Assembly (NCBI GenBank): GCA_036276755.1
Contig: DASUOG010000005.1
Span: forward strand, 13,777 to 77,776
DNA: 64,000 nucleotides
Source: Candidatus Saccharimonadales bacterium
GTDB lineage: Bacteria; Patescibacteriota; Saccharimonadia; Saccharimonadales; 2-12-FULL-41-12
Direction of reading: 5' to 3'
Position 1 is the stretch's first letter. Each line of letters starts with the position of its first letter. Below are positions 5,759 to 36,298 of the stretch, one piece after another. Below the pieces are notes generated by a model. The model ran no database searches. It saw only the letters and a program-made list of their open reading frames with translations, and was not told the origin of the DNA. Position numbers and translations under genes: made by a program.

Positions 5759-6895
5759 TCATAGCATCTCCACAAATTTATCGAACAACCATGCCGTATC
5801 GGTCGGTCCCGGTGCCGCCTCCGGATGGAATTGGACGGAGAAAAATGGTTTGGATTTATGCATTATGCCCTCGACCGAACCGTCGTTTAAGTTACTGAAA
5901 TACACCCGCCATTCCTTGGGCAGAGAGCGTTCATCTACCGCGTAGCCGTGATTCTGACTGGTTACGTAGCATTTCCCGCTTTCGTTATCGATGCAAGGCT
6001 GGTTATGGCCGCGGTGGCCGAATTTCAATTTATAGGTCCAAGCGCCGGCCGCCAGCGACATAAGCTGGCTGCCCAAGCAAATACCCATGACCGGCTTATT
6101 GTTTTTGAAAAGTTTTTTTATGTTCTTGATGGATTGTTTATAATCGGCCGGATCGCCCGGTCCGTTCGACAAGAACACACCGTCATAATCATCGGTAGAG
6201 AAATCATAATCATAAGGGACGCGCAAGACGTTCAGCTTTCTCGAAGTCAGCGACCTAACTATATTCTCTTTGGCTCCGCAATCCAGTAACATTATGGTTT
6301 TGCCAGCGCCGGGGATCTTATACAGTTTTGGCCGGCCGATTGACACTAAGGGCTTTTTCGGTTTGAAATCCCTGATCGGCTTTTTCGAAGATGTGATTAC
6401 TCCGTTGACCACACCCCTACTGCGCAGATGCCCGGTCAGGGCCCGGGTGTCCACATCAAAGATTACCGGCACCCTCTGGTCTTTGAGCCATTCCAGGAAC
6501 GATCCCTGGGATCGCGGATGGCTCCAGTCTTCAACCAGTTCTGCCAGGACGACTCCGCGAGCATGTATCTTTTCCGACTCCCAGGCTTCTTCATGTACGC
6601 CGTAGTTGCCGATCAAAGGATAGGTGAAAGTAAGTATTTGCTCGCAGTATGAAGGATCCGTCAACGATTCAACGTAACCGGTCATACCGGTGTTGAATAC
6701 TACTTCGCCCGGTTTTGAATCGGTTTGCCATACAGGTACGCGGCCGTGGAACCTGGATCCGTCTTCCAGCATTAGCTGGGCGGGCTTCGATTTAAAAAAA
6801 TCGCCCCCGGGGCGACTTATTATTTTACCGCTAGCTTTTTTGATTGTTTGGCTCACACTCCGATATACACTATCAAGCAAACCCTTCCTGCGCAA
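5759..6895 (-). CDS. carA: carbamoyl-phosphate synthase small subunit (glutamine amidotransferase)
   Basis: 378 aa. Class I glutamine amidotransferase motif GICLGSQ (catalytic Cys) and FHPEA (catalytic His/Glu) in the C-terminal half. Adjacent to carB. Confidence 0.9.
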   Translation of the reverse strand: MRRKGLLDSVYRSVSQTIKKASGKIISRPGGDFFKSKPAQLMLEDGSRFHGRVPVWQTDSKPGEVVFNTGMTGYVESLTDPSYCEQILTFTYPLIGNYGVHEEAWESEKIHARGVVLAELVEDWSHPRSQGSFLEWLKDQRVPVIFDVDTRALTGHLRSRGVVNGVITSSKKPIRDFKPKKPLVSIGRPKLYKIPGAGKTIMLLDCGAKENIVRSLTSRKLNVLRVPYDYDFSTDDYDGVFLSNGPGDPADYKQSIKNIKKLFKNNKPVMGICLGSQLMSLAAGAWTYKLKFGHRGHNQPCIDNESGKCYVTSQNHGYAVDERSLPKEWRVYFSNLNDGSVEGIMHKSKPFFSVQFHPEAAPGPTDTAWLFDKFVEML

Positions 6896-6898
6896 GTA

Positions 6899-7453
6899 CT
6901 ATTCGCGCGACTTTAAAAGCTTGGCAAGCAAACCGGCTATAAACAACATACTCAAGGAGTAAAAACCGACTTCGCCGTACAGCTCGACTTTATAACCTTC
7001 GTTAAAATTCAATATGAAATAACTGATCGCGCTCAACGAGTAAGCGGCTATGCAAAGTATTGCCGTAGCATACAGGGCGCTGCGGCTAAGCAACAGTCCG
7101 GAAACTATAATCGGTATGATGAACAAAAAGACCGCCCGGCTTGCCATGCCTCGCTGGGTATAAACGCTGAATGAGGCCAAAGCCACATCGGCTAAAATCA
7201 TCAACAATAATAACAATTTATGCATCAGAGCATGCCTTGATCTTGAGTGAGCCAAATACCATATGACACTGTTTACGACCAGCAGTGCCGAGATGACCAC
7301 CCATCGGTATAAGACATAATCCGGGGTAATCAATTGCGATGTGTCATAAAGTATTGTCTGAACGATCAATAATATTATGAACAAGAAATGCAGCTGGCTA
7401 AATACAATCAGCCCTTTTCGCAAATTAACCGGTGATTGTTTATTTTTAGACAT
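6899..7453 (-). CDS. hypothetical polytopic membrane protein
   Basis: 184 aa with about five hydrophobic helices. Same strand and close spacing with the next two genes. Confidence 0.5.
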   Translation of the reverse strand: MSKNKQSPVNLRKGLIVFSQLHFLFIILLIVQTILYDTSQLITPDYVLYRWVVISALLVVNSVIWYLAHSRSRHALMHKLLLLLMILADVALASFSVYTQRGMASRAVFLFIIPIIVSGLLLSRSALYATAILCIAAYSLSAISYFILNFNEGYKVELYGEVGFYSLSMLFIAGLLAKLLKSRE

Positions 7454-7504
7454 AAGAATAACTAAGCAAAAGCATTATACAATAGCCCGTTTAATACTGC
7501 TATG

Positions 7505-7900
7505 TCAGTCCATGAGCCTTGACAGCAACGTCAAGATAATCGTGACGACAACGCTTATTCTCAAAGAACCGTTGATCAGACGTTTGGCACACGCCCGGTC
7601 AAGCCGACGCTTATCGCGGCTTATCACATCCTGGGTCTGCCCAACCTCGCCGGACATGTTATATTTACCGGCCTTTGCATAGCCGGTAGCGAATTTATGC
7701 CTGGCTTCATTTAACCCATGTATCGATATGAATACCGGTACCAGCATACTTAAATAAAGCAGGATAGGCACGTTGAAGAAAACCAGCATTATATAAAGCG
7801 CTGTCCCTACGGCCGCTGATCCGTAACCTACTACCTTTCGCCGATAATTTATCTCTTCCTTACCGATATTAACTGAACCGGCTTTATACTGAGATGCCAT
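7505..7900 (-). CDS. hypothetical small membrane protein
   Basis: 131 aa with two or three predicted transmembrane helices. Confidence 0.45.
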   Translation of the reverse strand: MASQYKAGSVNIGKEEINYRRKVVGYGSAAVGTALYIMLVFFNVPILLYLSMLVPVFISIHGLNEARHKFATGYAKAGKYNMSGEVGQTQDVISRDKRRLDRACAKRLINGSLRISVVVTIILTLLSRLMD

Positions 7901-7915
7901 GCCCCCGGACCGCTT

Positions 7916-8485
7916 TTATTTTTTATCTTGACTGCCTTTTAAGGCGGCTTCGACCACATCTCTTGGCAATGATGCAGCTGATAACAAGGCATTGCGAACG
8001 GTGTCCGCGGTGTCTCCACCTACCGAACTGGCCGCCGAAACCACACCACCGACAGCCGCTTTTGCGGCTTCTGAGGTATCCGCGCCGACTTCGCCGGCTG
8101 CCTTGATGGCTCCCTGTACCGCCGACACGGCTGCCGCTCCTACATCCCCGCCTGTTTCGGCAGTGGCGCTTATCGTACCTTCGGCTGCCCCTCTTATACC
8201 TTCAATCACATCCCCGCCGACTTGGCTGACACCATTTACGACGCTGCTCATAGTATTAAAAGCCGTATCTGACAATGAAACACCGACCTTGCCCGCGCCC
8301 TTAATGGCTCCGTCGGCGACCGATGCGATAGCCTCCACAGTGCTGCCACCGACATCCCCGGAAGATTGTATGACATTGATTACCTGGTCCTTTACGGTTG
8401 TCGTAACGGCATCGAGCACGTTGTCCACACCTTCTACCGCGGCAACGACCGCATCAGTAGTTTCGTTTATTATTTTTGCCAACAT
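7916..8485 (-). CDS. Ala/Gly/Val-rich tandem-repeat protein of unknown function
   Basis: 189 aa with no signal peptide. At least four degenerate ~22-aa repeats of the form GGD-V-x-A-x-x-GAIKAAG-x-VG. GC-rich coding region whose antisense frames are also open. Confidence 0.55.
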   Translation of the reverse strand: MLAKIINETTDAVVAAVEGVDNVLDAVTTTVKDQVINVIQSSGDVGGSTVEAIASVADGAIKGAGKVGVSLSDTAFNTMSSVVNGVSQVGGDVIEGIRGAAEGTISATAETGGDVGAAAVSAVQGAIKAAGEVGADTSEAAKAAVGGVVSAASSVGGDTADTVRNALLSAASLPRDVVEAALKGSQDKK

Positions 8486-31899: not shown

Positions 31900-34191
31900 T
31901 CAACTTTTATCAAGTTGTGCGAGTTTCTTCTTAGTGTAACGTTCGGCGGCCAGGCGTGTCAGCTCCGGATCATCGCTCATATTGACAAATTTCATGCCTT
32001 CAGCGATCAGGGGATGCTTTTCCGCCACCATATCAAACATTGTCTTGGCAATTTTTCTATAAGCCGGGTGTCCCGCTGAACCGGTTCTTAGCTCTAAAAA
32101 GTGATAAGCCTCCCGGGCGTTGAAAGTCATTTTCCAGCGCATCCGATGGCCCAAAAGTGTCGCATATTGAGCTTCCTGTTCGTAACCGTTTTTCTGCATC
32201 AGACTGTATAATCGCAGGCTTAGATCGAAGCACTTTTCGAATTCGTCACTCAATCCGGCATCTTGGACCAGTTTAGGAACTTCATAGCCGTAACGTGGCG
32301 TGAGCATCTGCCAAGTCAGATCATCTACCATGCGATGTCTCTGCAGATCGCGGAAAATGCCGTAATCGCACAAGATGTCCCATGAATAATGTATTTTTTC
32401 AAACGCCCGGCCCGGCTTGTGACGACGGTTGAATCTTTCGCCGATATAGCTTTGGACGACTTTTTTCTTCTTATTTACCGGCCATTTATCGACTTCTTTC
32501 CTCAGTTCGGTCAATGAAAGGGAACTATGTTCATATAATATATCGGCAGCTATATCCAATTCGTTATGCGGCCAAACACTGACCAGTCTTACGGGTTCGC
32601 TATCTCCACTGATCCTCGATGGCAATAATTCATCGGCTAGAGCCTTGGTATTTTCTCTGGCAAATGCTCTGTAGCCCATTGCCAGGATGCCGCGTTCGTT
32701 AATGTCGACTCTTTCCAAAAACGCCGGTATGGTCTTGCGCGCTTCAACCAGTAGTTTCCTGCCTACCTCGTGCGCTTCAGCCAGATTGTCGCTTAGCAAA
32801 TGCATGATTAGGCTTTCTAAGGCCTGTCCCGATGCGAATATACCGACGGTTGATTTGGTAGCTACCGGCAGGACCGCCCTGGCGGCATCACAAGCCTGGG
32901 CCCTGGTCGCGCCTTTCCAGGCAACGTCGCGCTCACTCTCCGGTACGCCGGAGGTGCTTCTAACGTAATCCGTAAGTTTGGCTACCATGTATGAATAAAT
33001 ACCAAAAATCTTGTCCAGTGCCTCGTTATAAGCCTTTTCAACGTCTTTTTTAAGGTAAGGTAGCCGATGATAACGGTAATTTCCGTGCTCATCTTTTTTA
33101 TCAAAATAGATATAACGCGTTGATTGTTCAAGGTAGGAGGCCAGCCTGCCCCACTCCAGCTTTTTTGTCAGCAGGTTGCTGGCATTCTCTACTACAACGT
33201 GTTGGCCGACCAGCTGCTGAACCGAATCATCGCCATATGCGGTTATGACCTTTTTAAGTAAGCGTTCGTCCTTGGCTTCCGGACTACTGAATTCGTCCAA
33301 GATAGTTACTCTCATATCATCGCCGCGCCGGCTTAACCGGGCCATGGCAGCAGCTATCGTCTGCGAAGGAAGTCTAGTGGTGAAGGCATACACGTCATCT
33401 TGGGTATTGGTCAGAAAGGATTTCAGATATTCGTGCCCTTCGGGTGTGATCCGGGGCGGGGACTCGGTTTTGTCCAAATAGGGGTTACCCTCGTTTTTAC
33501 CTATCTTTTTTTTTAGTTTGTTGCCGTCCGGCAAGAAAACCAGCATGGTTTCCCACAACTGGTCATTGATGATCTTGGTATTTAAAATTTTGCCCGAGCG
33601 CGTGCAGTCTATCTGCTTAAAGTCCTTGGGAAACAACTGGCATAAGTTATCATAAACTTCTACCGATTTTCTAAGATGCTCCAGGCTGCTTTCGTGAATA
33701 TCTTTTGAATTACCCCTTTTGTCGACATTTCTTATCGCTATCTCAGGCGGCACGCGCAGAACAAAAGATATATCAGGCCGCGGTATTTTAAACATCTCGT
33801 ATTCTATCTGGTCCAACCATATAAAGAACCCGCGCCTTTGCTCGGCGTTGTCGAACAGAACGCCCTGGTGAGCCATATTCGACCCACTAAACCTGTCCGC
33901 GACCACTACTTTGCCTTCGGTAAGGGCCTTTTTGATACGCGCCGCGGAATGAAACCGGTCTAGAGCAAAAAACATCGAGGCAGTATACGGTCCGACTGTT
34001 GCGGGGGACCCTAAGTTACCGGCCAGATATTCCTTGATGAAATAGCTGGAAGGCTTGTTGTATTGCGGGAACTGCAAGGCTTCTACTTTGTAGCCGTTAT
34101 TTTGGAGCCTTTCAACAATAAGTTTGAACTGGGTGGATTTGCCTGACCCGTTGGTACCTTCTAAAACGATGAATGCCCCTTGGCTTCGCAT
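31900..34191 (-). CDS. tmk-thyX: fusion protein: thymidylate kinase (Tmk) domain + two tandem ThyX-like (flavin-dependent thymidylate synthase) domains
   Basis: N-terminal 210 aa: P-loop FIVLEGTNGSGKSTQ and LID motif DRFSGSNMAHQG (Tmk family). Residues ~300–520: ThyX block WGRLASYLEQSTRY (compare RHRxASYxxQSxRY) and ARAVLPVATKSTV...NLAEAHEVGRKL. Residues ~560–763: RHR motif LQRHRM...PRY and ATLLGHRMRWKMTFNAREAYHFLELR, i.e. a second ThyX core. Confidence 0.75.
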   Translation of the reverse strand: MRSQGAFIVLEGTNGSGKSTQFKLIVERLQNNGYKVEALQFPQYNKPSSYFIKEYLAGNLGSPATVGPYTASMFFALDRFHSAARIKKALTEGKVVVADRFSGSNMAHQGVLFDNAEQRRGFFIWLDQIEYEMFKIPRPDISFVLRVPPEIAIRNVDKRGNSKDIHESSLEHLRKSVEVYDNLCQLFPKDFKQIDCTRSGKILNTKIINDQLWETMLVFLPDGNKLKKKIGKNEGNPYLDKTESPPRITPEGHEYLKSFLTNTQDDVYAFTTRLPSQTIAAAMARLSRRGDDMRVTILDEFSSPEAKDERLLKKVITAYGDDSVQQLVGQHVVVENASNLLTKKLEWGRLASYLEQSTRYIYFDKKDEHGNYRYHRLPYLKKDVEKAYNEALDKIFGIYSYMVAKLTDYVRSTSGVPESERDVAWKGATRAQACDAARAVLPVATKSTVGIFASGQALESLIMHLLSDNLAEAHEVGRKLLVEARKTIPAFLERVDINERGILAMGYRAFARENTKALADELLPSRISGDSEPVRLVSVWPHNELDIAADILYEHSSLSLTELRKEVDKWPVNKKKKVVQSYIGERFNRRHKPGRAFEKIHYSWDILCDYGIFRDLQRHRMVDDLTWQMLTPRYGYEVPKLVQDAGLSDEFEKCFDLSLRLYSLMQKNGYEQEAQYATLLGHRMRWKMTFNAREAYHFLELRTGSAGHPAYRKIAKTMFDMVAEKHPLIAEGMKFVNMSDDPELTRLAAERYTKKKLAQLDKS

Positions 34192-34250: not shown

Positions 34251-34751
34251 TTAAGCAAATTGCCGTCCGACGATATTTTTCAGGTGTTTTTTGTTGTATA
34301 GTTTATGGCTGTTTTTTTCCAGATAAACTTTTTTGATACCCGCTGCTAAAATAGCATTCCAGCAGGGTTCGCAAGCCCACCAATGCCCCCATAGATACAG
34401 TTCCCCGTCGCTCAGATCCTTTTTTGGATGATTGTGTAGGGCATCCACGATAGCCCGGGGTTCGCTGTGGTTTTTCGGATGACAGCCTTCGCAAAGTTCG
34501 TATCGCTGACCGGTAGGTATACCTTTTTTTACCCGCTCGCAGCCGAATTTATCGTGATAATCACTGCCGTTGGCGCCTCTGCCGATTATCTTCCCCTCAA
34601 GCACTATCACGGAGGCGGTAGGCATGGTCCGATCCAGCGAATTGCTCCTAGCAAATTCCCTGGCCGCACTCATGAACTTATTATCCCCATCGACGTAGTA
34701 AATGGTTTCGTCCTTCGGGATGAACGGATATTTTATTTCAGATTTTGCCAT
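34251..34751 (-). CDS. dCMP deaminase (cytidine/deoxycytidylate deaminase zinc-binding family)
   Basis: Zinc-binding and catalytic motif HSEPRA (H-x-E) and CEPCWNAI (PCxxC). 166 aa. Confidence 0.8.
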   Translation of the reverse strand: MAKSEIKYPFIPKDETIYYVDGDNKFMSAAREFARSNSLDRTMPTASVIVLEGKIIGRGANGSDYHDKFGCERVKKGIPTGQRYELCEGCHPKNHSEPRAIVDALHNHPKKDLSDGELYLWGHWWACEPCWNAILAAGIKKVYLEKNSHKLYNKKHLKNIVGRQFA

Positions 34752-34794: not shown

Positions 34795-35631
34795 ATGGCG
34801 AGATTTGATTTTATCTACAGGTCTGTACTGGAAGACCTGATGAATAAGGGGGTGAAGGAAGTAAACAAGCGAACTGGGCATGAAACTAAGGCGCTTCCCG
34901 GAATCAGTTTTTCTATAGACTTGGAAAAAGACGGTTTTCCGCTGCTTGCCTTGAGAAAAATACCCGTAAAATTGTTCATTGCCGAGCAAGTCTGGTTCAT
35001 ATCAGGCAGTAGAAAACCGGAGATATTTTTACGAGACTATACGAAGATTTGGGATGATTTCACTAACCCGGGCGATGTAGTAACCGTAGCATACGGCTAT
35101 CGCTGGCGCAGGCATTTCGGACGCGACCAGCTGGGTAGCCTTGTTAAACTACTGGAAGAGGACAAGTCTTCCAGGCACGGGGTCATAGTAACCTGGGATC
35201 CGGCCAGTGACGGCCTGGGCGGCGTCAGCAAAAGCAACGTACCCTGTCCATTTACGTTCACGGTCAATGTAATAGGCGGTCGGTTGAATCTTATGAACGT
35301 GGTGCGCTCGAACGATATGATCCTAGGTTTTCCGCATGATGTGGCCGGTTTTGCTCTTTTGCAATGCATTTTGGCCCAAAAACTTGGAGTAAAGCCGGGA
35401 ATTTATACGCATACTATAGCGAACGCTCATATTTACGACACCCACTATCACGCCGCCGAAGAACTTATAAAACGTCCGGTTGACTCTGAACCGATAAAGT
35501 TAGAATTGCCCGAAAATAGCTTTGAGAGATCTGAACAAAAAGACCACGGGCTGGTAGATGAAATCTATGCCAGTTTGACTGCAAATTATAAGCCCGGTAA
35601 TAAATTAAAAGACTTGAAAATAATCTTATGA
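34795..35631 (+). CDS. ThyA-family paralog (thymidylate synthase / dCMP hydroxymethylase fold) with Asp at the pyrimidine-specificity position; predicted dCMP (or CMP) C5-methylase/hydroxymethylase
   Basis: Aligns along its length with ThyA. Conserved blocks: KIWDDF (folate-binding Trp), YGYRWRRHFG (Arg pair), catalytic Cys in VPCPFTF, SND...GFPHDV (Asp in place of ThyA Asn177), and AHIY. Confidence 0.8.
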   Translation: MARFDFIYRSVLEDLMNKGVKEVNKRTGHETKALPGISFSIDLEKDGFPLLALRKIPVKLFIAEQVWFISGSRKPEIFLRDYTKIWDDFTNPGDVVTVAYGYRWRRHFGRDQLGSLVKLLEEDKSSRHGVIVTWDPASDGLGGVSKSNVPCPFTFTVNVIGGRLNLMNVVRSNDMILGFPHDVAGFALLQCILAQKLGVKPGIYTHTIANAHIYDTHYHAAEELIKRPVDSEPIKLELPENSFERSEQKDHGLVDEIYASLTANYKPGNKLKDLKIIL

Positions 35632-35653
35632 GGAACATATAGTAGGTAACCAT

Positions 35654-36298
35654 ATGTCTGTTCTAACACGCGAAGATATCCTGAAGTACGTCAAAGAGGG
35701 CGGTCTCGGTTTTAAACCCGGACTCGATTCGTTCCAATTGCAAGCACACTCGGTAGACCTGAGGCTCGGTTTTACGTTTTTAGTACCGAAATCATGGTAT
35801 GTCAGCAAAGCGGGCCGCGAACAGATCCACATGGACTTTTATGCCGCTAACAAAAAAGAACACTTCGACATAGTCGAGCTGGAGCAAGGCCAATTCTTCG
35901 ACTTGCTTCCGGATGAGCACATATTGGTCTCGTCCTTGGAATCTGTCAAATTGCCGGCTGATCTTATGGGGGTAATGTATCCGCGGTCATCCACCAACAG
36001 GAAAGGTATTTCAGTTGATCAGACAGGTATAATCGACAGCGGTTATGAAGGCCAGCTGGTGATCCCGATACGCAATAATACCCAATCGCAAACCGTAAGG
36101 TTATATCCCGGTGAGCGTTTTTGCCAGATCGTTTTCCAACGTTTGAGCGGGGAGGTCAAAGCCCGAAAAAGCCGCTACCACCGAAAGGACATAATCGAAG
36201 GCGTAGACGTGGACAGTCTGGAAAATGAACGCGAAAAAGAAATCAAATTAATAACAAAAGGCGACATCAAAGAGCTTAAGAAGAGCTACCCGGTCTGA
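35654..36298 (+). CDS. dCTP deaminase/dUTPase-superfamily protein lacking the deaminase catalytic Glu (probable dUTPase/dCTPase)
   Basis: Strong similarity to Dcd (HSVDLRLG, VKLPADLMGVMYPRSSTNRKGI, GIIDSGYEGQLVIPIRN). The E. coli Dcd catalytic E138 position aligns to Pro. Confidence 0.7.
   Translation: MSVLTREDILKYVKEGGLGFKPGLDSFQLQAHSVDLRLGFTFLVPKSWYVSKAGREQIHMDFYAANKKEHFDIVELEQGQFFDLLPDEHILVSSLESVKLPADLMGVMYPRSSTNRKGISVDQTGIIDSGYEGQLVIPIRNNTQSQTVRLYPGERFCQIVFQRLSGEVKARKSRYHRKDIIEGVDVDSLENEREKEIKLITKGDIKELKKSYPV

Follow-up and report, generated by a model that had tools for sequence, protein, structure and literature searches.

Homologues of thymidylate synthase (TS) that modify cytosine are separated from true thymidylate synthases by the residues at positions 177 and 147, and the exchange N177D turns TS into a dCMP methylase (PMC8670742). 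The DNA of Xanthomonas phage Xp12 has 5-methylcytosine (5mC) in place of all C, and the formation of 5-methyl-dCMP (5mdCMP) by the phage TS was confirmed in vivo (bioRxiv 10.1101/2024.12.05.627091). Phage genes for TS with Asp177, TS(Asp177), are typically flanked by the genes of a PRA-PH pyrophosphatase and of a deaminase of the dCMP family; many of these deaminases prefer 5mC and were proposed to make dTMP from 5mdCMP (bioRxiv 10.1101/2024.12.05.627091). Here, a gene cluster on a 64,000 nt stretch of DNA from a Candidatus Saccharimonadales bacterium (the window; contig DASUOG010000005.1, positions 13,777 to 77,776) is compared with these systems. It contains, next to a ThyA-like gene, the gene of a dCTP deaminase (Dcd) family protein, named DcdP, in which proline stands at the position of the catalytic glutamate. 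Family members with Pro and with Glu at this position are called P-type and E-type, respectively.

The DcdP gene and its family membership

The gene and its main features are located as follows.

35654-36298 (+): DcdP, 214 aa, Dcd fold, predicted non-deaminating dCTP(/dUTP) diphosphatase (open reading frame (ORF), Pfam, NCBIfam, alignments, AlphaFold2)
36035-36037 (+): GAC codon of Asp128, the motif-3 Asp, invariant in the P-type subfamily
36065-36067 (+): CCG codon of Pro138, the residue opposite Glu138 of E. coli Dcd (phmmer, MAFFT, close homologues)
36209-36295 (+): C-terminal extension, residues about 186-214, two predicted helices (alignment, AlphaFold2)

The ORF begins with an ATG codon. 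An earlier interpretation made from the letters alone (the sequence-only reading) had taken the protein for a Dcd homologue because of three motifs, HSVDLRLG, VKLPADLMGVMYPRSSTNRKGI and GIIDSGYEGQLVIPIRN. All three were found in DcdP, and the profile and structure searches agree with this assignment. The Pfam profile DCD (PF22769) was matched over its full length (1-153/153, E=8e-33) and the NCBIfam profile TIGR02274 (dCTP_deam) with 111 bits at a cut-off of 92.8. The AlphaFold2 model (pLDDT 84.6) has an all-beta core, and its top Foldseek matches were E. coli Dcd and M. tuberculosis Dcd-Dut (1xs4, 2qxx, 4a6a). The canonical dUTPase profile PF00692 was matched only partially (profile positions 26-109/129). 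Family membership is far beyond chance, and DcdP is a genuine Dcd-family protein.

In total, 1320 homologues were retrieved, and the named close ones are all annotated as "dCTP deaminase". An identical protein is recorded in a Candidatus Saccharimonadales metagenome-assembled genome; the window is therefore part of a chromosome of the Candidate Phyla Radiation (CPR)/Patescibacteria, namely of Candidatus Saccharimonadales. The gene sits between the ribosomal blocks L10-L7/L12 and L1-L11-NusG-SecE, and its GC content of 47% equals that of the window.

Replacement of the catalytic glutamate

In a gapless phmmer alignment against the PDB, Glu138 of E. coli Dcd (1xs1, GWSGCIVLEFYN) stands opposite Pro138 of DcdP (GYEGQLVIPIRN), and the Dcd-Dut of B. 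halodurans (4xjc, GFNGQITLELFN) aligns in the same register. This register was also obtained with MAFFT for 125 Dcd-family representatives, 93 of which carry Glu and 22 Pro at this position, nearly all of the latter falling among those most similar to DcdP. No more than one of the 120 closest homologues lacks Pro138 (at least 119 have it), and it is present in each of the 79 loci of the synteny scan described below for which the motif was captured. The exchange of Glu138 for Pro, as proposed from the letters, was confirmed by both alignments. A catalytic Glu elsewhere in the motif would contradict this proposal; none was found, E132 of GYEG being variable (E/Q/S/A/K/T) and no invariant acidic residue other than Asp128 lying in or near the motif in the P-type alignment.

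This alignment comprised 12 P-type members with identities down to 28%. Invariant in it are, among others, D35, R37, R111, R116, G125, D128, G133, P138, N141 and E196; S112 and S113 are invariant in a five-sequence alignment, and Y131 is conserved to at least 90%. Following established knowledge on dUTPases and Dcd-Dut enzymes, we take Asp128 to be the motif-3 Asp that activates the hydrolytic water and Tyr131 to be the sugar-gating residue. The equivalents of the deaminase-site residues Ser111 and Arg115 are retained (S112/S113 and R116), which is not discriminating, since dUTPases have them as well. Invariant Gly125, adjoining a one-residue deletion, aligns with Ala124 of E. coli Dcd, which is described as taking part in the deaminase site through its backbone (Johansson 2005, cited by the supplement of PMC10733785).

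The triphosphate-binding residues, the motif-3 Asp and the Tyr are thus kept and the deaminase base is lost, which makes DcdP look, from its residues, like a dNTP diphosphatase rather than a deaminase. Of the features of a dCTP deaminase (EC 3.5.4.13), it has the fold and lacks the catalytic Glu; of the Glu and the motif-3 Asp needed by a bifunctional Dcd-Dut (EC 3.5.4.30), it has D128 only. The five motifs of a canonical dUTPase are incomplete, as the tail of DcdP is helical and contains no Gly-rich motif 5 (RGxxGFGSTG).

Glu-less Dcd-family dUTPases have been solved from P. furiosus (P45, 9ln0) and T. pacificus (8y1w, dUMP bound); their motif reads GWDGNLTLMLYN, with Met at the Glu position. 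These structures support the earlier statement that Glu-less members act as dUTPases. T4 gp56, which had been listed as another member of this trimeric fold, does not belong there: it matches PF08761 (dUTPase_2, all-alpha), has no BLASTP similarity to DcdP and is a functional analogue only. The SIRV1 dUTPase was rejected as a further Glu-less precedent, its Glu being kept (GQLTIELVG).

The P-type subfamily

In a neighbour-joining (NJ) tree calculated without bootstrap, a single clade unites 12 of the 13 P-type sequences and excludes both E-type Dcd and the archaeal dUTPase P45. On this sequence evidence, the P-type proteins are an old, uncharacterised and separate Dcd subfamily, spread through Saccharimonadia and Paceibacteria. 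The helical tail of about 35 residues, with Glu196 invariant and Gly203 near-invariant in the P-type alignment, is specific to them and is not present in characterised Dcd or Dut enzymes. A search of the IMG/VR viral contigs for P-type Dcd returned E-type Dcd and canonical Duts only.

Kinship of DcdP with the Dictyostelium Dcd2 group was rejected. Dcd2 and its relatives from CPR bacteria can replace Dcd in an E. coli dcd mutant, and the same study covers four active-site residues in 179 sequences without a Glu-to-Pro case (PMC10733785). Nearly all of its members carry the Glu, and since no Glu-to-Pro exchange is reported, the dataset held no P-type protein. A second Dcd-family paralogue was observed in one cluster of the synteny scan (L010, 3272-3985 (-), 237 aa). 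It has a Dcd2-like C-terminus, and its residues opposite Glu138 and the motif-3 Asp are Thr and Asn, respectively (GWINPGYINRLTFTVHN); this long paralogue is a different protein from DcdP. In a literature search, no description was found of a Pro-type Dcd, nor of the present module in CPR bacteria. We class DcdP as a new and so far uncharacterised variant of the Dcd/dUTPase superfamily.

The ThyA-like partner

Directly upstream of DcdP, the following features were annotated.

34795-35631 (+): ThyA-family enzyme, 278 aa, predicted Xp12-type dCMP C5-methylase (Pfam, alignments, phage matches)
35245-35247 (+): TGT codon of the retained catalytic Cys of the ThyA-like protein (alignment)
35338-35340 (+): GAT codon of its Asp at E. 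coli position 177 (alignment)
35614-35643 (+): sigma-70-like promoter match, TTGAAA / 18-nt spacer / TATAGT, 10/12, in the 3' end of the ThyA-like gene and 10 nt ahead of the start codon of DcdP
35632-35653 (+): spacer between the ThyA-like and DcdP genes, 22 nt, with an AGGT Shine-Dalgarno-like site (sequence)

Besides Asp177, the ThyA-like protein of the window has Pro at E. coli position 147, and it keeps the catalytic Cys146 together with Glu58, Tyr94, Arg166, Ser167, Asp169, His207 and Tyr209. Across the CPR loci, Asp177 was found in 77 of 77 and Pro147 in 74 of 76 sequences, the catalytic residues being kept. Of 3404 matching records, those of Xanthomonas phage Xp12 and of Xp12-like phages are among the best phage relatives. 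The Xp12 TS was matched with 163 bits and 36.6% identity, as against at most 122 bits for any solved TS, and shares with the ThyA-like protein the signatures VPCP and PxD as well as the block YGYRWRRHFGRDQL, which is identical in both. Because of Asp177 and Pro147, the CPR ThyA paralogue is predicted to be of the cytosine type and to act on dCMP, not on dUMP.

The distance of 22 nt between the stop of the ThyA-like gene (35631) and the start of DcdP, given in the sequence-only reading, which calls the two genes co-transcribed, is correct. The spacer contains no terminator-like hairpin, and in many relatives the two genes overlap or are 4 nt apart. Because of the sigma-70-like match, an additional internal promoter ahead of DcdP may be present.

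Conservation of the gene cluster

Two genes of the opposite strand complete the cluster in the window.

34251-34751 (-): dCMP-deaminase-family zinc deaminase, 166 aa, divergent from the ThyA-like gene (Pfam, locus comparison)
31900-34191 (-): fusion protein of 763 aa that joins dTMP kinase (Tmk, residues 1-207) to a long ThyX domain, encoded downstream of the deaminase (Pfam, NCBIfam)

The 166-aa protein is a candidate 5mdCMP and/or dCMP deaminase. The window was also searched for genes of a DHFR-like protein, a canonical Dut and a MazG/gp56-like protein, and none was found.

The synteny scan, performed with one genome per species, found 296 loci, of which 80 were retained and inspected around DcdP (locus numbers are prefixed L). 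Almost all of the 80 are titled Patescibacteria and belong to Saccharimonadia and Paceibacteria, the groups of the latter including Taylor-, Vogel-, Kaiser-, Adler-, Lipton-, Colwell- and Nomurabacteria. The gene order is near-invariant: Tmk follows the dCMP deaminase gene on one strand, DcdP follows the ThyA-like gene on the other, the two pairs are divergent, and L11/NusG lie beside them. The individual partners were found as follows.

ThyA-like: 77 of 80 loci
dCMP deaminase: 72 of 80 loci
DHFR-like: 57 of 80 loci
Tmk: 50 of 80 loci
Canonical Dut: 31 of 80 loci
ThyX fused to Tmk: 9 of 80 loci, among the first, Saccharimonadales-labelled ones

The DHFR-like gene (RibD_C/DHFR_1) shares the strand of DcdP, which it either separates from the ThyA-like gene or directly follows (e.g., L010 5507-6001 (+)), and is present in the closest relative of the window (L003), though not in the window. 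The canonical Dut is a trimeric enzyme with five motifs and a full-length PF00692 match; its gene is usually located between Tmk and the deaminase (e.g., L034 4115-4564 (-)), and the loci having it fall within L017-L081.

P-type genes at 28-44% identity were inspected one by one. Module partners were identified in L084, L087, L093, L095 and L096, the arrangements being TS(Asp177), DcdP and deaminase in L084 and TS(Asp177), DHFR and DcdP with Tmk on the opposite strand in L093. In L087 and L096, which are phage-like contigs, DcdP is near TS(Asp177) and the deaminase, and in L095 a 433-aa fusion of deaminase and TS(Asp177) (6672-7973 (-)) adjoins the P-type Dcd. The pairing with the module is thus retained even among these deeply diverged members.

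Some further observations were made at these distant loci. The other called genes of the L095 contig are mostly without Pfam matches. In L093, a 345-aa ORF (6659-7696 (+)) overlaps the end of DcdP; it has no Pfam match and contains a thymidylate-synthase-like DPSSRR motif, so that it may encode a very divergent ThyA-fold protein. The contigs of L087 and L096 (28 and 47 kb) contain a sheath-initiator match and a Kelch-repeat protein of giant size (more than 2100 aa), and an ORF of about 250 aa precedes the module, with a weak, sub-threshold DHFR_1 match in L087 and no Pfam match in L096. They may represent phages of CPR bacteria with modified cytosine. In L086 (6001-7324 (+)), a P-type Dcd with 40% identity to DcdP is followed after 4 nt by a cytidylate kinase gene, with no ThyA-like gene nearby.

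In the cultured oral Saccharibacterium Southlakia, the equivalent place holds the genes of Tmk, of a Dcd paralogue (245 aa), of FolA and of a canonical ThyA (313 aa), none of which is essential (PMC10633639 supplement). Since this gene set differs, at least Southlakia among the cultured strains lacks the cluster.

Proposed function of DcdP

DcdP is proposed to be a dNTP diphosphatase of the trimeric Dcd/dUTPase fold, devoid of deaminase chemistry, that acts as the dCTPase at the entry of a 5mdCMP route to dTMP. We consider this assignment evenly poised between being right and wrong. Its substrate is probably dCTP, possibly also dUTP or 5-methyl-dCTP (5mdCTP). As entry enzyme of the CPR cluster, DcdP would convert dCTP to dCMP and pyrophosphate. 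The ThyA paralogue with Asp177 and Pro147 would methylate dCMP to 5mdCMP with methylene-tetrahydrofolate as donor, and the resulting dihydrofolate would be recycled by the DHFR-like enzyme. The divergently transcribed dCMP-family deaminase would then turn 5mdCMP into dTMP, and Tmk would phosphorylate dTMP to dTDP. In this scheme, we infer the substrate of DcdP, the product of the CPR methylase, the substrate of the deaminase and the direction of the flux.

The presence of DHFR argues for reductive methylation over hydroxymethylation. The conserved dCMP deaminase, DHFR-like gene and Tmk make dTMP, reached via 5mdCMP, a more likely end product than modified cytosine in DNA. The hand-off from dCTPase via dCMP to C5 modification, as put forward in the sequence-only reading, is supported by the context (Asp177/Pro147, the Xp12 relatives, Dut in 31 of 80 loci); a modified cytosine in DNA as the end of this hand-off is the less likely part. 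As a whole, that interpretation is partly supported.

Where the cluster contains a canonical Dut (31 of 80), DcdP is not needed as a dUTPase. It would be hard to justify why another dUTPase, being redundant, should be kept at 58-87% identity throughout the radiation, and a distinct substrate is more likely. The Dut co-residence and the cytosine-type partner would, by inference, favour dCTP (or 5mdCTP) over dUTP. A plain role as "cellular dUTPase" is unlikely for DcdP. For the organism of the window, a dual dCTPase/dUTPase, in function like T4 gp56, is quite possible because of the lack of a canonical Dut in the 64 kb and the ThyX fused to Tmk.

Two wider readings are more tentative. It is conceivable, if somewhat doubtful, that much of the CPR (Saccharimonadia, Paceibacteria) makes thymidylate without dUMP, with the Glu-less Dcd-fold enzyme as a dedicated dCTPase. 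In a more extreme version, uncultured CPR bacteria may build 5mC into their DNA from 5mdCTP.

Weighing of the alternatives

Several points weigh against DcdP as a dCTPase. Every characterised Glu-less Dcd-family enzyme is a dUTPase and not a dCTPase, and neither the sequence nor the model of DcdP discriminates between cytosine and uracil in the pocket. The motif GIIDSGYEGQL resembles motif 3 of dUTPases (E. coli Dut, GLIDSDYQGQL). The Tmk-ThyX fusion of Saccharimonadales, including the window, indicates that a dUMP-dependent dTMP route exists too. With no canonical Dut in the window, DcdP could double as dUTPase here, and the DHFR-like gene that most relatives have is likewise missing from the window. 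The CPR deaminase has no detectable similarity to the Xp12 deaminase. Finally, four distant P-type loci (L083, L085, L086 and L092) are without a ThyA-like neighbour, L083 and L085 being short contigs.

The strongest alternative is that DcdP is a plain, archaeal-like Dcd-family dUTPase supplying dUMP for ThyX/ThyA, and the cluster an ordinary thymidylate operon of Dut, TS, DHFR, dCMP deaminase and Tmk. It draws on the solved Glu-less enzymes, which are all dUTPases, on the dUTPase-like motif 3 with Asp and sugar-gating Tyr, on the missing Dut and the adjoining ThyX-Tmk fusion, and on a gene set that equals the textbook dTMP pathway. Against this, a full-length, five-motif Dut in 31 of 80 clusters would make DcdP redundant, the Asp177 and Pro147 of the partner TS (77/77 and 74/76) predict dCMP and not dUMP, and the P-type clade is apart from archaeal P45 in the NJ tree, for which no bootstrap was calculated. 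This explanation is regarded as rather unlikely.

Less probable still is a role of DcdP as a 5mdCTP-specific pool sanitiser, which would hydrolyse 5mdCTP to 5mdCMP and so keep the intermediate out of DNA, as Dut does with dUTP. The context evidence is the same as for the dCTPase, the coexistence of DcdP with a canonical Dut would be accounted for, and Dcd enzymes accommodate a 5-methyl pyrimidine, as seen from the dTTP bound in 2qxx and 2j4q. The source of dCMP would, however, be left unexplained, and the pyrophosphatase of the phage 5mC modules must spare 5mdCTP.

That DcdP is still a dCTP deaminase or Dcd-Dut with another general base, e.g., the invariant Glu196, is very improbable. The deaminase-site Ser and Arg are kept and the dCTP_deam score exceeds its cut-off; these residues are, however, equally conserved in dUTPases (PRSG...K motif, Dut alignment), and a dCMP deaminase is already present in the cluster. 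By general structural reasoning, Glu138 lies deep in the buried base pocket, and a tail residue about 60 positions away, in separate helices, is unlikely to reach C4. A relocated catalytic Glu, with E132 variable and E196 invariant but in the distal helical tail, is retained only as this low-probability alternative. Equally improbable is a non-catalytic or regulatory nucleotide-binding subunit, e.g., a dCTP/dTTP sensor docking on the methylase via the helical tail, which would fit the subfamily-specific conserved extension and the tight pairing with the ThyA-like gene, overlapping or 4-nt-spaced in many loci, but not the invariance of all triphosphate-binding and hydrolysis residues, unexpected for a mere binding protein.

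Further genes of the window

A role of DcdP in anti-phage defence was rejected, as PADLOC gave no match for DcdP, the ThyA-like protein or the deaminase and the locus is core and syntenic. The ThyX domain of the 763-aa fusion matches its profile in two stretches, and the region of its RHR motif reads RHRMVDDLTWQMLTPRY, which departs from what we take to be the usual RHRxxS...SxRY pattern. Two ribosomal proteins of the window have N-terminal extensions: L1 (36306-37319 (-), 337 aa) carries a Lys/Glu/Ala-rich low-complexity extension of about 110 residues, and L7/L12 (30679-31158 (-), 159 aa) a likewise charged extension of about 35 residues.

Significance

If the proposed 5mdCMP route is true, the annotations "dCTP deaminase" for DcdP and its named close homologues and "thymidylate synthase" for their neighbours denote the wrong chemistry, and the way to dTTP is wrongly placed in metabolic reconstructions of CPR bacteria. 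The 5mdCMP route would be a third way to dTMP, beside ThyA and ThyX, and the first cellular, chromosomally fixed form of a pathway hitherto observed in 5mC phages alone. CPR nucleotide metabolism would thereby be linked to the base-modification toolkits of phages, and the question would arise whether the DNA of uncultured CPR bacteria holds pre-replicative 5mC. If other cultured strains resemble Southlakia, this would account for the absence of the cluster from experimental work so far. The P-type enzyme itself would be a natural conversion of a deaminase scaffold into a pure pyrophosphatase, and could possibly be used as a dCTP-selective or 5mdCTP-selective dNTPase reagent.

Comparison with known systems

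Dcd of E. coli (1xs1) and the Dcd-Dut enzymes of M. tuberculosis (2qxx) and M. jannaschii (1ogh) have the fold and PF22769 in common with DcdP, and Dcd and Dcd-Dut enzymes are the top structural matches to its model (TM 0.65-0.9). The N-terminal VDLRLG, RSSxxR and the motif-3 Asp are also common to both, and the C-terminal lid is related (SRYH against GKYQ). DcdP differs in the invariant Pro in place of Glu138/Glu145, in Tyr in place of Trp/Phe131, in PRSS in place of GRSS, in the extra conserved helical tail of about 35 residues and in its separate clade.

The archaeal-type dUTPases of P. furiosus (P45) and T. pacificus resemble DcdP in the Dcd fold, in the missing deaminase Glu and in the motif-3 Asp and RSS that are kept. 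Unlike DcdP, they have Met and not Pro, a Dcd-like GW motif and about 155 aa without the tail, and in the NJ tree without bootstrap P45 nests among E-type Dcd, away from the P-type clade. Each is the dUTPase of its organism, whereas many DcdP-bearing CPR genomes have a canonical Dut in the same cluster.

In their role, the conversion of dCTP to dCMP, T4 gp56 and the PRA-PH pyrophosphatase of Xp12 resemble what is predicted for DcdP, and their genes likewise lie beside those of a cytosine-specific ThyA homologue and a dCMP deaminase. Their folds are unrelated to that of DcdP, gp56 matching PF08761 and the Xp12 protein PF01503 (all-alpha), and there is no sequence similarity; the gp56 homologue of RB69 matches DCTPP1-type structures (PMC13326640 Table 1).

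The phage 5mC module of Xp12, PaMx74 and MetaGPA contigs consists of TS(Asp177), dCMP deaminase, DHFR and an NTP pyrophosphatase, i.e., the functions of the CPR cluster; in Xp12 the operon order is PRA-PH pyrophosphatase, TS, dCMP deaminase and DHFR. The phage 5mC TS has Pro147/Asp177 and long identical blocks in common with the CPR ThyA-like protein, and in both systems a DHFR-like gene belongs to the operon. The CPR module differs in being a core, syntenic chromosomal locus by L11/NusG across a bacterial radiation, in including Tmk and often Dut, and in having a pyrophosphatase of the Dcd fold. By analogy, DcdP would occupy the pyrophosphatase slot of a phage-type 5mC module, and the CPR cluster would be the cellular counterpart of that module.

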